Of a stretch of 64,000 bases of DNA, positions 27,972 to 41,356 are shown piece after piece. The stretch lies in assembly GCA_035631615.1 (NCBI GenBank), contig DASQIK010000066.1, positions 15,852-79,851 of the forward strand, written 5' to 3'. Under the pieces are notes generated by a model. It made no database searches. It was not told the DNA's origin and saw only the letters and a program-made list of their open reading frames with translations. Source of the DNA: Candidatus Dormiibacterota bacterium. GTDB taxonomy: Bacteria; Chloroflexota; Limnocylindria; Limnocylindrales; CSP1-4. The translations under genes were made by a program, and so were the position numbers. Position 1 is the stretch's first letter; each line of letters begins with the position of its first letter.

Positions 27972-28019
27972 GTGGTGAGCCCGCAGGGACTTGAACCCTG
28001 AACCCGCTGATTAAGAGTC
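27972..28019. repeat. distal att site: 48-bp perfect copy of the 3' part of tRNA-Lys
   Basis: 27972-28019 is 48/48 identical to 41309-41356 by hand alignment. It covers the tRNA from the anticodon stem to CCA plus 1 nt, and no 5' half is present here. Confidence 0.95.
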
Positions 28020-28109
28020 CCGGCAGGGGTGGCCGGGAGTGTCCGGACGAGGAGGCTGTGCGAATGGCGGCCGGTCCCCAGGCCGGGGTTGGACGGGCGC
28101 GACCGCTGG

Positions 28110-28135
28110 CGTTGCTACCAGCCGTTGCTACCAGC
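28110..28135 (+). repeat. tandem 13-bp repeat CGTTGCTACCAGC x2 (putative integrase arm-type site)
   Basis: Read directly. The core GTTGCTACC recurs twice at 41228-41249 in the same orientation, just inside the other island end. Confidence 0.8.
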
Positions 28136-28178
28136 GCTGCCCTAAAGGGCTTGCCTGACATTCTCGGGCGAGGCCTCA

Positions 28179-29639
28179 CTACCGATTCATGGCCTCGCGG
28201 AACGGCTCGTGCAGGAAATCTCTCAGCGGTATCGGCTTGTCCAGGGCTCTGGGAATTCCGAGCTCGATGGCGCGCCGTCGGATCAACGTTCGCCACTCGC
28301 GACGTCGCCGTGGGTCGACCATCGCTTCGTCGACGTCCAGATCAGGATCACGGTCGAACCGCCAAGGTCCCGACCCGCCCGCTTCGAGGAGCAGACGGGC
28401 GAGGATCGCCCGTCTGAGAAGATCGCGCCACCGATCGAACAGGACGGCCACGCGGTCGTCGACCATGACCTGATCGAGTCCTCGCGCGGCGAAGAGATCC
28501 TCCCAGCGCTTCGGTGGGATGACCTCGCCGTGGGCGACCTTCCCGCGAATCTTGAGCAGCTCACCGACGTCCTCGAAGATCGCCGAGGGCGGGTCGCCGG
28601 CGCGCGCGAGGAGCTGAGCCGCTCGAGTCTTGATTCTGAGCGTGATCTCCTCGCGCTCACCGGTCGAGAGCGCGGCCTCGAGGCCGATGGCGATGTCGAT
28701 GACGACGTCCGCCCAGGCAGCGGTCCGGTGCGATCGGTTGAACCGGCTCAGGGCGACGATGATCGCGGGCGGGATCTTCACCTTCGAGCGATCGTCGAGC
28801 TCGCAGATGCGCGTTGCGATCGCATCGATCCCGGCGAGTTCCTCAGCATTGACGACACCTACGCGGAGCCAGGATGTAGCCTGCTCGGGATCCACGGCAA
28901 CTGCGTTCGGCCCGCCGGTGTGGACCATCTTCGGCTGTCCATAAACCTCGAAGGGCTCGACGATCGACCCCGCCGTAACAAGGCGGAGCGCCGTCGAACC
29001 GTGCGCGAGGTGTGGCCGAACATCGAACGCGACGATCCAGCCATCGCGGCCCGATCCCTCGGCGACGAGGAACGCACTCGGCTCCGTCGAACCCCAGCTC
29101 ACGTGCGCGTCGTCGCTCGCGCTGGCGCCCTCAGGGATCTCCGGTGAGATCGTCTCCCGGATGCCGTGGACGTGGCGGATCCGAGCGTCGTGGAGCTCCT
29201 GACCGTCGACCGCACTCGCGTCCAAGTCAAGGAGGAGGCGCATCACGCGAACCGGCTGCTCAGGGTGCTCGAGGTGGTCTAAGAGCTCGTCGACCTGCGG
29301 GCCCGGGCCCGACACCACCTCGCCGTACCGGAGTGTCTCGACCGTGGCGGCCGCAACGACACCACGAACGAGGGCCTCGACGTATTCCTCCGCGCGGCCG
29401 AACCCGAGCCTCCATCGGCCGGGGATGAGTTCGTTGAGTTCGTTTGCCAGGTCATCCTCTGCCGCCCCGCGGCCGCGCAGCCGCCAAAGCCGTCGGCGCT
29501 CGATCCAGGGGTTGTCGCGGCCAGGCGCGGGGATTAGGCCGGCGGCCTCGAGACGGGGCAGCTCGGCCTTCAGGTACCGGATCGCAGCGTCGCGGATTCG
29601 CTCACGAGTCACCGCATCGATCGGGAAGGATGTCGCCAC
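28179..29639 (-). CDS. HEPN-motif protein (ApeA/Abi-like architecture: unknown N-terminal domain plus C-terminal HEPN-like helical domain)
   Basis: 486 aa. The C-terminal third is helical, with ALSRFNRSH...IGLEAAL...LLKIRGKVAHGE containing R-x4-H (R365-H370, nt 28530-28547). First gene inside the distal att site. Confidence 0.6.
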   Translation of the reverse strand: MATSFPIDAVTRERIRDAAIRYLKAELPRLEAAGLIPAPGRDNPWIERRRLWRLRGRGAAEDDLANELNELIPGRWRLGFGRAEEYVEALVRGVVAAATVETLRYGEVVSGPGPQVDELLDHLEHPEQPVRVMRLLLDLDASAVDGQELHDARIRHVHGIRETISPEIPEGASASDDAHVSWGSTEPSAFLVAEGSGRDGWIVAFDVRPHLAHGSTALRLVTAGSIVEPFEVYGQPKMVHTGGPNAVAVDPEQATSWLRVGVVNAEELAGIDAIATRICELDDRSKVKIPPAIIVALSRFNRSHRTAAWADVVIDIAIGLEAALSTGEREEITLRIKTRAAQLLARAGDPPSAIFEDVGELLKIRGKVAHGEVIPPKRWEDLFAARGLDQVMVDDRVAVLFDRWRDLLRRAILARLLLEAGGSGPWRFDRDPDLDVDEAMVDPRRRREWRTLIRRRAIELGIPRALDKPIPLRDFLHEPFREAMNR

Positions 29640-30132
29640 CGAATCGCTCTAGATCAGGAGCGTCGCGCTTGGCATCTCGGTCAAGAGTAGAGCGCCTCCG
29701 TCCGCTGACTGCATGTCTCGCTAGGGTAGATTCCGGAACTCGACCGGTAGGAGGGATCCGTGGCGGCCTCGGTGTGCTCCTCAGCACGGTCAGCCTGCTC
29801 GAAGTGTGGCCATGACGACAGGCTCGAGCTCACCTTCGTGGTGTCGACATGACGACCACGGTCCCGGTCGAGGTCCGGCACTACCTCGACGTCGGCGCCT
29901 GGTCATCGCGCTCGCGCTCTTCGGCACGGCGCTCACCGCCCGCCGGCGCGTCATCGTGGTGCCGTACCGCCCGACGATCCAGGTGCCGGTCCCGTGATCG
30001 GGCGGTGATGACCCCGGGCGCGGTCACGCGAGCTGGTCGTTTCGCGCGAAACGAGATCGTCGTCGACCCGCGGCGCCGGGGCGGCTGGATGGTATCGGCG
30101 GCCGTTTATGTGGCGATCACTGGTGGGGCCGC

Positions 30133-30921
30133 ATGGATCCGCTGACGGCGCTGCTTGGCACGGTGGGCGTCGCCACAGTGGGTGTAGTCGCGACCCTCAT
30201 TCTGAAGAAGGCCGGGTTCGACGAGGTCGATATCGGGGTCAACCCGCCGCGATTCAAGATCTCCCGCAAGAAGCCTGAGCCGTCCCACGGCGGGTCGCCC
30301 CTACCGAGTGTCGAGCCGCCGGCGCCGACCGGCTCAGAGATCCAGCGTGAGCGAGACCAGCTGCGAGAGGCGATCTTCGCGTATAGCGAGGCCGCGCAGG
30401 CGCTCGAGGCCCTGCTCGGATGCAAGGCAGTTGAGCGCGACCGATACGCTCGGGAGTGGTTCGACAGCCTGTGCAACGGCCTCGAGACCGCACTTAGGAC
30501 CTCAACGGAGGAGCGCTATCGAGCGAGCGTCTGGGCCAGTCGCGCCGATCCCGAGAACTTCGATGCAGTCGGCCTTGGCAAGTTCGATCCTCACGACGTC
30601 CGCTACCAGAAGCTGAAACGGACGGGCACCATCGGCGGCGAGGCGTTCGCCGTCACGAGCGGCGAGAAATACTGCCCCGACATCCACGATCCGGACTGCA
30701 ATTGGGTGCCACGGAGCACGAAGAAATCGAAGTACCGAAGCCTGTTCGCGGTGGCGCTCGTCGACCTCGAAAACGAAACGCGACGCTGGGGCGTACTGAC
30801 GATCGATTGCAACATCAAGGACGGGTTCTCAAAACTCGACCAACAGGTCGCGCGTCATTTCGGCGAGCTAGCGTCGCTGGGCGAGCTGGTCTGGCGTCGC
30901 AAGGAAGCACCGCCGGTCTAA
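30133..30921 (+). CDS. membrane-anchored protein with C-terminal GAF-like domain
   Basis: 262 aa. N-terminal TM (LLGTVGVATVGVVATLIL), a helical linker, then a GAF-like pattern: RASVWASRADPENFDAVGLG...GTIGGEAF...YRSLFAVALVD...RWGVLTIDC...FSKLD. Domain call by eye. Confidence 0.6.
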   Translation: MDPLTALLGTVGVATVGVVATLILKKAGFDEVDIGVNPPRFKISRKKPEPSHGGSPLPSVEPPAPTGSEIQRERDQLREAIFAYSEAAQALEALLGCKAVERDRYAREWFDSLCNGLETALRTSTEERYRASVWASRADPENFDAVGLGKFDPHDVRYQKLKRTGTIGGEAFAVTSGEKYCPDIHDPDCNWVPRSTKKSKYRSLFAVALVDLENETRRWGVLTIDCNIKDGFSKLDQQVARHFGELASLGELVWRRKEAPPV

Positions 30922-31024
30922 CGTGCCCGCGAAACCGGCTAGGCGTTACGCCGGATACGGCGATATAGTCCAACCGGACGTCGATCACGGAACGACGATC
31001 CAGTCGGGGAGATTCGAGGAGGAC

Positions 31025-40469: not shown

Positions 40470-41131
40470 GACACACCGCCGGCAACCAAGCGAAGCCGCG
40501 GTCGCGGATGGCACCGTCGGCAGGCGTCGACTGTGGGGAGCTCGTCGATCGCGACGTAGTCGTGCGAGGTTTCGCCCGTCGAGAAGTTCTCGTCGCGGAG
40601 CGTCGCCGACCAGCCGCACTTCATGCGGCCGCGGATCCAGTGCGTCCGACGATCGACCTCGGACCAATCGCCCGAGAAGATGTGCCAGCCGCCGTCCCAT
40701 CTGGGTTCTGCGAGAGGGCTCGTCCGGCGACTGGACCGGCGCTGGCCGGGTCGCGGGACGTAGCGCGACCGGATCCAGAGCCCAGCCTGGGGCGGGGCGA
40801 ACGGCAGCGCGTCTGGCGTTGCGAGCTCGTTGGCGATCGCCCCCGCCAGACCGCTCGCGACACCGTACAGGGCGGAGGTCGCCGCGGCGGCCATGATCCG
40901 CTTGCATGCGTCGATATCGAGGTCGGCGCCGAGCTCGTCCAGAACAAGCTCCGCCGGCTCAACGACGGTCCTCGCCAACTCCCGGGCGAGCGTGAGCAGC
41001 TGCGTTGGCGGAGGATCATTGGGCTTCGCCGTCGCGAGGCCCCACCGGGTGATGCCGAGGCGCTCGAGCGCGCCCCAGACCTCCTCGCGGGCCGCATCGT
41101 GACGGCCGGACCATCCCATAGACTGAGCCAT
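40466..41131 (-). CDS. hypothetical Cys-motif protein, paralogue A
   Basis: 221 aa. C-terminal PPQAGLWIR...GGWHIFSGDW...MKCGWSATLRDE...DACRRCH parallels paralogue B. First gene inside the tRNA-proximal att site. Confidence 0.6.
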   Translation of the reverse strand: MAQSMGWSGRHDAAREEVWGALERLGITRWGLATAKPNDPPPTQLLTLARELARTVVEPAELVLDELGADLDIDACKRIMAAAATSALYGVASGLAGAIANELATPDALPFAPPQAGLWIRSRYVPRPGQRRSSRRTSPLAEPRWDGGWHIFSGDWSEVDRRTHWIRGRMKCGWSATLRDENFSTGETSHDYVAIDELPTVDACRRCHPRPRLRLVAGGVS

Positions 41132-41227
41132 GTCGCGGTGCCTCCTAACAGGCTTCGCGATTGGCGCCCGTCGACTAACCCTCGGCGGGCGTCTCGCTGT
41201 CCGCGAGTATACGCACGTTTCCGAGAC

Positions 41228-41249
41228 GCGTTGCTACCGCGTTGCTACC
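41228..41249 (+). repeat. tandem 11-bp repeat GCGTTGCTACC x2 (putative integrase arm-type site)
   Basis: Read directly. Same core and orientation as 28110-28135. Lies 60 bp inside the tRNA-proximal att core. Confidence 0.8.
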
Positions 41250-41260
41250 ACCGGGCATGA

Positions 41261-41294
41261 GTCGACCCCTCCGGCGAGGCCGCGAGGGGTCGAT
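41261..41294. terminator. perfect 10-bp GC-rich hairpin just downstream of the tRNA-Lys 3' end
   Basis: TCGACCCCTC (41262-41271), a 12-nt loop, then GAGGGGTCGA (41284-41293). TTTACGTT follows on the plus strand. The minus strand, where the tRNA is read, has no U-tract. Confidence 0.45.
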
Positions 41295-41308
41295 TTACGT
41301 TCAGAAAG

Positions 41309-41356
41309 GTGGTGAGCCCGCAGGGACTTGAACCCTGAACCCGCTGATTAAGAGTC
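41309..41356. repeat. tRNA-proximal att site (48-bp repeat inside tRNA-Lys)
   Basis: Identical to 27972-28019. Spans the tRNA 3' portion including the anticodon. Confidence 0.95.

Follow-up and report, generated by a model that had tools for sequence, protein, structure and literature searches.

The 64-kb stretch of DNA analysed here (positions 15,852 to 79,851 of contig DASQIK010000066.1, hereafter the window) contains a 13.3-kb element integrated at a tRNA-Lys(CTT) gene of Ca. Limnocylindria (Chloroflexota). Judged by its gene content and its relatives, the element is probably an integrative phage satellite with an organisation similar to that of phage-inducible chromosomal islands (PICIs) and with a tail fibre of its own. 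It combines a tyrosine integrase, an excisionase (Xis) and a replication helicase (RepA) with a small terminase subunit (TerS) that lacks its large partner (TerL).

The element is delimited by two 100% identical copies of a 48-nt direct repeat (27972-28019 and 41309-41356; spacing 13,337 nt), which enclose a unique interior of 13,289 nt. One copy lies in tRNA-Lys(CTT) (41310-41384, minus strand), the sole tRNA identified by ARAGORN in the window, where it begins on the 5' side of the anticodon stem and ends 1 nt beyond CCA; no third or degenerate copy occurs within the window. ARAGORN and the repeat search thereby confirm what an earlier note on this DNA had described, perfect 48-bp repeats duplicating the 3' part of an intact tRNA-Lys. 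The ends are organised as follows:

27972-28019, no strand assigned: distal attachment (att) site, which is attR with respect to the tRNA and duplicates 48 bp from the 3' part of tRNA-Lys (perfect direct repeat)
28110-28135, plus strand: CGTTGCTAC(CAGC), twice in tandem, candidate integrase arm-type sites of the distal arm, 91-116 nt from the core
41227-41249, plus strand: CGTTGCTAC, twice in tandem, candidate arm-type sites of the tRNA-proximal arm, 61-80 nt from the core
41309-41384, minus strand: tRNA-Lys(CTT) holding the tRNA-proximal att core (41309-41356; ARAGORN and repeat search)

In the 64-kb window the 9-mer CGTTGCTAC has four exact occurrences, all on the two arms and in a single orientation, and these paired repeats look like the layout expected of integrase arm-type sites in attP, which makes them candidate sites. 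Taken together, the ends show insertion by site-specific recombination in the 3' part of tRNA-Lys(CTT) with a 48-bp core, and with precise ends, perfect att cores and arm repeats the recombination module appears intact. A GC-rich hairpin supplied by the element (41250-41308) directly follows the reconstituted tRNA 3' end and resembles those found after tRNA-Lys in other Limnocylindria genomes (sequences compared: L032, L024 and L006). In L006, a tandem short repeat (GTACCCAC / ATACCCAC) takes the place of the window's arm repeats, a hint that a further element is integrated there.

The two repeat copies were also recovered independently. The Logan assembly of run SRR6788486 contains a contig of 13,349 bp (L099) that is 100% identical to window 27990-41338, and its length equals the 13,289-nt interior plus 30 nt (k-1) of repeat at each end. 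Ends of this kind arise when a k=31 de Bruijn graph breaks at a repeat that is truly present twice, so that an assembly artefact, previously raised as a possible source of the 48-bp repeat, is ruled out.

The window has a GC content of 70.7%, and the MMPL transporter adjoining the tRNA shares 70-77% amino acid identity with its counterparts in metagenome-assembled genomes (MAGs) of Ca. Limnocylindria/Limnocylindrales (Chloroflexota). In related MAGs the MMPL gene is likewise followed by a 113-aa gene, tRNA-Lys(CTT), a variable stretch and then homologues of the window genes at 20258-21475 and 16660-20145. An actinobacterial host, which the GC content might suggest, was considered and rejected in view of the MMPL matches and this synteny. 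The distance from tRNA-Lys to the conserved downstream genes is ~1.2 kb in two of them (L007 and L022) versus ~20 kb in the window, 13.3 kb of which is the element. The insertion, for which the earlier note had proposed to find empty tRNA-Lys sites in relatives, is thus supported by gene-level synteny and not by a nucleotide-level alignment, because the nearest genomes are too diverged (MMPL 70-77%) and their sequence downstream of the tRNA is unalignable with the left flank of the window. Since other integrase genes abut the same tRNA-Lys in L009 and L038, this gene serves as a recurrent attB. Furthermore, the codon signature of the element is foreign to its flanks, with a mean GC content at third codon positions (GC3) of 0.83 in element genes versus 0.91 in 26 flanking genes (Mann-Whitney p = 7e-7). 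Within the element, the cargo end, correctly described before as lower in GC, has 67.6% compared with 70.8% in the remainder.

Genes were called by GC3 frame analysis, in agreement with the calls on L099. All open reading frames (ORFs) of the element are intact, and eight 4-nt ATGA/GTGA start-stop overlaps occur among them. Operon A (minus strand, 41131 to 38345) encodes a 221-aa protein, a 182-aa protein, the integrase and a 126-aa protein, joined by 4-nt overlaps, and operon B (minus strand, from 37692) encodes a ribbon-helix-helix (RHH) protein, Xis, a 76-aa protein, RepA, a 264-aa protein and a 215-aa protein. The packaging genes follow in the order TerS, 80-aa ORF, 36-aa ORF and 218-aa fibre. 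The cargo consists of plus-strand genes for 262-aa, 59-aa and 432-aa proteins, convergent with the fibre, and a minus-strand gene for a 486-aa protein beside the distal att site. The genes central to the argument are:

38722-39924, minus strand: tyrosine integrase, 400 aa (PF00589, 1.4e-25)
37513-37692, minus strand: RHH (CopG-like) regulator heading the replication operon (PF07878, 4.8e-6; called with 59 aa on L099)
37265-37516, minus strand: excisionase/regulator (HTH_17, MerR-like; PF12728, 4e-9; phrog_66)
35737-37041, minus strand: RepA, an RSF1010-RepA-like (AAA_25) helicase with a C-terminal winged helix (PF13481, 1.2e-20)
33701-34084, minus strand: TerS, probably of P27/HK97 type, without a TerL partner (phrog_1496, 1.2e-21)
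32683-33339, minus strand: tail fibre, 218 aa, with a 54-aa N-terminal adaptor and a C1q/TNF-like knob (phrog_13989, AlphaFold2, Foldseek)

TerS is the gene whose relatives are most informative. It matches phrog_1496, a terminase small subunit family, and while the window protein itself misses an E value of 0.01 against PF05119, 21 of its 28 aligned homologues match this family (Terminase_4; best 7e-8), in line with the P27-type assignment made earlier. The top PDB match of its AlphaFold2 model (pLDDT 86) is the HK97 TerS 8pop_B (probability 0.91, TM 0.56), at a non-significant E value of 0.37. Genomic contexts were compared for the six nearest relatives with readable context (42-59% identity):

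JGI 3459-bp contig, TerS 59% identical: RepA (66% identical), 62 aa, TerS, 54 aa, 66 aa, 201 aa, 139+ aa
L103, TerS 58% identical: tRNA-Val, integrase, primase/helicase, FtsK, TerS, 103 aa, HK97 capsid, tape-measure-like
L084, TerS 49% identical: integrase, two small ORFs, TerS, small ORFs
L087, TerS 48% identical: D5 primase, intervening genes, TerS, ORFs of 128, 120 and 220 aa
L086 (Kribbella shirazensis), TerS 43% identical: integrase, 132 aa, AAA_25, TerS, 101 aa, 63 aa, capsid
L088, TerS 42% identical: TerS, 73 aa, 62 aa, tape-measure-like

All six reside in small islands with an integrase or a replicase, and in none of them is TerS followed by TerL. As a control, eight viral contigs of IMG/VR with more distant TerS relatives (34-37%) were inspected; each encodes a 510-554-aa ORF directly after TerS, and all seven of these ORFs that were tested are TerL (phrog_9, 1e-52 to 1e-69), with portals next. 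In a neighbour-joining tree, seven island TerS, including that of the window, cluster apart from phage TerS. This pattern indicates a TerS clade that lives without a TerL of its own, a hallmark of packaging hijackers. Small ORFs after TerS recur in related islands, and the 80-aa ORF of the window is weakly similar to the 103-aa post-TerS ORF of L103 (E 0.007). The L103 island (2730-16177) combines FtsK/SpoIIIE, a hallmark of actinomycete integrative and conjugative elements (AICEs), with TerS, an HK97-fold capsid and a 987-aa tape-measure-like protein, and it lacks TerL.

The second virion gene, the only fibre-like gene as noted before, matches the virion structural protein family phrog_13989 at 2e-13. 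Gordonia phage Erutan, an uncultured Caudoviricetes genome and contig L104 each encode a stand-alone homologue (194-205 aa), and because such homologues exist in phages the 218-aa fibre is full length. Its relatives consist of two modules, an N-terminus of ~54 aa (MTATVAGIHLGLDTHANRPAAN...), which is 75-92% identical across many proteins with unrelated C-termini, and a C-terminal domain of ~140 aa. In the AlphaFold2 model (pLDDT 82.7) the C-terminal module adopts a C1q/TNF-like jelly roll, for which Foldseek retrieved the knob of the phage phi812 central spike as best PDB match (2e-9), followed by C1q domains; the best viral matches are tail fibres and actinophage minor tail proteins. On three phage contigs (L100-L102) the fibre homologue closes the tail module, located after the tape-measure and two tail proteins and before a convergent Acyl_transf_3 membrane gene, and in the window the fibre is likewise followed by a convergent membrane gene. 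Residues 1-54 of the window fibre match L101 and L102 at 89% in both protein and DNA (169 nt, 15 of them upstream of the gene). For residues 54-218 the identity to L100 is 60%, and the 74 nt downstream (32569-32642) are 82% identical to the same contig. By these matches, the window fibre is a mosaic with phage fibres. These phage contigs have a GC content of 66-73%, which is compatible with a Limnocylindria-like host.

Integration and replication functions complete the core. The integrase contains Phage_int_M and SAM_3 domains and matches phrog_1 at 2e-70. Rather than being terminal, it is part of the four-gene operon A, 1.4 kb from att, with two ORFs between it and the tRNA. Together with HTH_17 in Xis, RHH_5 in the RHH protein and AAA_25 in RepA, the PF00589 match of the integrase upholds the previous description of a tyrosine integrase and an RHH/Xis/RepA operon with 4-nt overlaps. 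In addition to AAA_25, RepA matches MarR_2 (2e-5) and the RSF1010 RepA structure 1g8y (3.7e-6); it lacks a primase domain, and many of its homologues bear an N-terminal prim-pol domain. Repeat scans gave no convincing replication origin or iterons. Among 50,697 cultured-phage (INPHARED) records, seven encode RepA-type homologues, mostly small virome contigs, which could themselves be packaged satellites. Records of this kind (MT836164, MT838829, MT836267, MT836902, MT837414 and MT838398) are mostly unannotated contigs of 4.8-25 kb from human-faeces viromes. RepA homologues also occur on a few plasmids, and an 84%-identical RepA is present in a quite different element (L001). Two mini-elements of ~8.5-11 kb (L004 4848-13318 and L001 360-9624) encode AAA_25 RepA proteins that are 60% and 84% identical, respectively, to that of the window, together with a terminase-like gene (Terminase_7-like, or GpA_ATPase-like with 483 aa) and a PhageMin_Tail protein of 701-862 aa (tape-measure-like), and have no capsid recognised by Pfam. 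The L004 element was inserted by a serine recombinase in a comM/ChlI-type Mg-chelatase gene.

Searches of the called ORFs with Pfam, PHROGs and NCBIfam identified no TerL, portal, protease, capsid, connector, tail tube, tape measure, holin or endolysin, and when every ORF was searched against Pfam, PHROGs, NCBIfam, PADLOC and PDB no hidden structural gene emerged beyond TerS and the fibre. With 1,522 ORFs of related phage and island loci as tblastn queries, only RepA, Xis, the integrase, TerS and the fibre were matched in the element, and no fragments of structural genes were detected in its intergenic DNA. Profile searches and tblastn therefore agree with the earlier note that large terminase, portal, capsid, tail tube and lysis genes are not recognisable.

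These absences bear directly on the alternative that had been put forward alongside a satellite, a prophage that lost its structural block. According to this scenario, a temperate siphophage at tRNA-Lys lost the block from TerL to the tail tip (~20 kb) and the lysis genes by internal deletion, retaining int, xis, replication, TerS, fibre and morons, and would now be non-transmissible or transmitted only by chance. We regard it as rather unlikely. The comparative data shift the balance to a satellite, because TerS lacks TerL in six of the six nearest contexts, structural remnants are missing, and the ORFs and att arms are intact. The putative junction is a tidy, translationally coupled operon, the lysis genes are absent too, which would need a second clean deletion, and RSF1010-RepA-type replicons are rare in phages. 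Furthermore, TerL-less TerS in diverged relatives, one of them with a 66%-identical RepA, implies that the reduced state predates considerable divergence.

Several observations, on the other hand, weigh against a satellite, and a number of them fit a deletion. The order int, regulators, replication, TerS, (gap), fibre, convergent membrane moron and att is colinear with temperate phages and is exactly that of a temperate siphophage minus the block from TerL to the tail; this part of the prophage alternative stands. The arrangement of the fibre and the convergent membrane gene copies prophage tail ends, given that fibre homologues terminate complete tail modules with a convergent Acyl_transf_3 gene next (L100-L102) and that the similarity to L100 continues downstream of the fibre, and the 36-aa ORF at the putative junction could be a deletion scar. 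Searches of IMG/VR, the GTDB genomes and JGI metagenomes yielded no sibling with the 264-aa, 215-aa, 221/182-aa or cargo ORFs, so that a propagating lineage of this exact architecture is at most hypothetical. Of the genes of the element, none but RepA, Xis and TerS has relatives, and these invariably belong to elements that differ in other respects; scans of IMG/VR with TerS, the 264-aa and 215-aa proteins and RepA retrieved nothing close, and a single metagenome scan retrieved one locus. The six TerS contexts are a small, non-random sample, the TerS fold match is the non-significant one given above, and no capsid-size or helper-interference gene is recognisable in the element. L099 was considered as an excised circle and rejected, as its length and ends are fully explained by the graph break. 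What the element displays is anatomy alone, from which we infer induction, excision, replication, packaging and fibre incorporation.

The RepA relatives and the island neighbourhoods of TerS also invite comparison with non-phage integrative islands. An element of the AICE type, an integrative and mobilisable element (IME) or a simply integrase-borne island could replicate by RepA and be mobilised by conjugation or not at all, with the TerS-like protein and the fibre as co-opted genes or passengers. Modules of int, xis and rep with an AAA_25 RepA do occur in many integrative elements, RepA is promiscuous, as illustrated by the 84%-identical protein of L001 and the homologues on a few plasmids, and the TerS relative of L103 adjoins an FtsK/SpoIIIE gene. 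However, FtsK/SpoIIIE or Tra, a relaxase, a type IV secretion system (T4SS) or any other transfer gene was not identified in the called ORFs by Pfam, PHROGs or NCBIfam (an origin of transfer, oriT, was not searched for). The two recognisable non-housekeeping functions are both virion functions, located together in one operon, and DNA was recently exchanged between the window fibre and phage fibres. We consider a non-phage origin quite improbable, as the only recognisable accessory functions of the main operon are virion functions.

A phage satellite in turn can be held against the systems already described. The PICI core in the SatelliteFinder definition comprises integrase, regulation, primase-replicase, capsid morphogenesis and TerS (de Sousa et al. 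2023, PMC10085698), and the capsid-morphogenesis component is optional in type B PICIs such as Staphylococcus aureus pathogenicity islands (SaPIs), while tail genes are, together with holin, portal and connector, 'forbidden' components of the model (PMC10085698). The median PICI size is 9.5 kb, with most below 20 kb, and >99.9% of surveyed PICIs are from Proteobacteria or Firmicutes, with PICIs also reported in 66% of mycobacterial genomes (PMC10085698). Three of the five core components are present outright in the element, namely an integrase with att sites, a regulator and TerS without TerL. The replicase is partly matched, as the element RepA is an RSF1010-RepA-like helicase without a primase domain, and no capsid-morphogenesis gene was identified. 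The tail-fibre gene belongs to the 'forbidden' class and is atypical for PICIs, which also weighs against a satellite of this kind; portal, connector and holin are absent. With three components present, the replicase partial, capsid morphogenesis lacking and a tail gene present, the element is a PICI-like variant and is not filed as a PICI.

Beyond this core, the element shares with PICIs its size of 13.3 kb, integration by a tyrosine integrase, an Xis/MerR-type regulator with a divergent control region and a replication helicase of its own, as well as the absence of capsid, portal and lysis genes, cargo after terS and a separate packaging operon. It differs in its Chloroflexota host and in the integrase embedded in a four-gene operon, and its proteins lack sequence homology beyond generic domains to those of SaPIs or EcCICFT073-type islands. 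The PICI layout proposed in the earlier note thus holds for the overall arrangement, the integrase, the regulator and TerS, partially for the replicase, and not for the capsid gene, a terminal integrase or the absence of tail genes.

The nearest sequence relatives of the element are, by these comparisons, uncharacterised TerS islands of Actinomycetota and Chloroflexota. The Kribbella island (L086), one of the TerS islands of Actinomycetota, encodes a TerS of the same P27 clade (43% identity), shares the order integrase, AAA_25 RepA, TerS, and has two small ORFs after TerS and no TerL. Unlike the element, which encodes a fibre instead, L086 and L103 contain an HK97-fold major capsid gene after TerS. 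The likeness to phiRv1/phiRv2-like 'PICI type B' of mycobacteria is drawn from the description in PMC10085698 only. The Streptomyces satellite MiniFlayer encodes, like the element, its own tail-fibre protein (deCarvalho et al. 2023, PMC10690885), again a likeness by description; it differs in encoding TerS, TerL, portal, capsid and scaffold and no integrase or primase, and its fibre binds the neck of the helper (PMC10690885). Capsid-forming PICIs (cf-PICIs) share integrase, regulator, replicase, TerS and the dependence on helper tails, but the element lacks the genes for TerL, HNH, portal, protease, capsid and head-tail connectors that they encode. AICEs such as pSAM2 and SLP1 integrate at tRNA 3' ends, contain an int-xis-rep core, measure 9-24 kb and reside in high-GC hosts, all of which applies to the element as well. 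In contrast to AICEs, which encode an FtsK/SpoIIIE-type Tra, Spd and Kor/Pra regulators, the element encodes none of these but has virion genes.

If the element is a satellite, its repression would be relieved by infection with, or induction of, a helper siphophage, upon which Int and Xis would excise the element and RepA would replicate it autonomously. The satellite TerS would then bind a site on the element and recruit the helper TerL, thereby directing element DNA into helper capsids. The 13.3 kb of the element probably correspond to roughly one third to one quarter of the helper genome. The fibre might dock on helper tails via the shared 54-aa adaptor, which would give the particles the receptor specificity of the satellite, or might alternatively interfere with the assembly of helper tails. 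The cargo, consisting of membrane proteins and an Rx4H protein, probably functions in surface modification or exclusion and in defence.

Limnocylindria are an abundant, uncultured class of Chloroflexota in soil and freshwater, for which we know of no isolated phages and of nothing on satellites. To our knowledge, phage satellites have been described almost only from Proteobacteria, Firmicutes and a few Actinomycetota. No literature pairing 'Limnocylindria' with 'prophage' was found, and the few papers that pair 'Chloroflexota' with 'phage satellite' contain either term just one or two times and, by title and abstract, treat other subjects. A working satellite would extend satellite biology to a new phylum, its TerS clade, systematically uncoupled from TerL, would be a possible satellite marker in high-GC Terrabacteria, and it would be a rare satellite with its own receptor-binding fibre, which bears on the host range of satellites. 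The conserved fibre adaptor also provides a handle to find helper phages in metagenomes. The novelty is the phylum and the unusual combination of TerS and fibre; the case is purely computational and near an established concept. A bolder version would make the element the first phage satellite of Chloroflexota, with TerS and fibre as its only structural genes redirecting packaging and re-targeting or sabotaging helper tails. Through a fibre whose N-terminal adaptor matches those of helper-type phages and whose C1q knob differs, the satellite would select the next host for itself, and the related TerL-less TerS islands, in Actinomycetota as well as Chloroflexota, would belong to a wide satellite clade that is as yet undescribed. 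In this full form we hold the claim to be unlikely.

The remaining features of the element are:

28179-29639, minus strand: 486-aa cargo protein; its family (~490 aa, uncharacterised) shows an invariant R-x4-H-G (family alignment)
30133-30921, plus strand: 262-aa cargo protein with an N-terminal transmembrane helix (GC3 frame analysis; called on L099)
31025-31204, plus strand: 59-aa cargo ORF without hits (called on L099)
31264-32562, plus strand: 432-aa multi-pass membrane cargo protein, convergent with the fibre (no family match)
33349-33459, minus strand: 36-aa ORF whose start overlaps the preceding stop (ATGA), a real gene or a junction scar (ORF call; L099)
33456-33698, minus strand: 80-aa ORF directly after TerS (ORF call)
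34097-34115, minus strand: terminator-like hairpin and T-run between the replication operon and TerS (weak)
34208-34855, minus strand: 215-aa protein with the zincin motif HELRHVWQ (HExxH), DUF4157/eCIS_core-like (PF13699, E 0.0074)
34852-35646, minus strand: 264-aa protein with a coiled-coil N-terminal half (coiled-coil matches only)
37038-37268, minus strand: 76-aa operon ORF (4-nt overlaps; L099)
37740-37762, no strand assigned: GGTCCGAAAATA, twice in tandem, candidate operator in the divergent control region (repeat search)
37929-38348, plus strand: 139-aa protein whose C-terminus forms a transmembrane helix; its gene diverges from the RHH operon (called on L099)
38345-38725, minus strand: 126-aa ORF at the end of the integrase operon (frame analysis; L099)
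39921-40469, minus strand: 182-aa ORF with an ACRRC motif, preceding the integrase (ORF call; L099)
40466-41131, minus strand: 221-aa ORF heading the integrase operon, with an ACRRC motif (frame analysis; L099)

The 486-aa protein belongs to a family of 357 cluster representatives, mostly of 480-520 aa, in which R365, H370 and G371 are invariant, and none of 40 members matches Pfam or PADLOC. It may be a HEPN-like (Rx4H) member of an undescribed defence or toxin (RNase) family. The same ORF was considered as a TerL and rejected, given that it has no Walker A motif, no PHROG match and a family (Rx4HG) of its own. The 262-aa protein has no match in Pfam, PHROGs, PADLOC, NCBIfam or PDB. The 432-aa membrane gene occupies the position at which Acyl_transf_3 surface-modification morons are located in related phage contigs; kinship of its product with the phage Acyl_transf_3 proteins or with a chromosomal 446-aa membrane protein was considered, and no relationship was detectable.

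Within operon B, the 264-aa protein matches only the coiled coils of SMC, LmuB and JetC and has no relatives in IMG/VR; a scaffold-like or morphogenesis role is speculation. The PF13699 match of the 215-aa protein lies below the Pfam cut-off. In operon A, the 221-aa and 182-aa ORFs, for which no homologues were identified, share a C-terminal ACRRC motif and a weak colinear similarity (24% over 123 aa), and with an E value of 0.17 paralogy is not claimed. The hairpin at 34097-34115 may separate an early from a late (packaging) transcription unit; it is weak, and the terminator scan returned five sites versus 3.4 expected, which is not above chance. A sigma-70 promoter scan found nothing. Between the RHH operon and the 139-aa gene, the perfect tandem repeat of GGTCCGAAAATA, a candidate operator, falls where the divergent region is richest in AT.

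Outside the element, L007 and L022 lack the ~6.4 kb that separate the distal att site from the conserved downstream genes (window 21574-27971), whereas L005 and L009 share a part of this stretch. The stretch, which contains the gene for the 446-aa multi-pass membrane protein (26433-27773; element-like GC3 of 0.82), probably represents an older variable region at the same hotspot.

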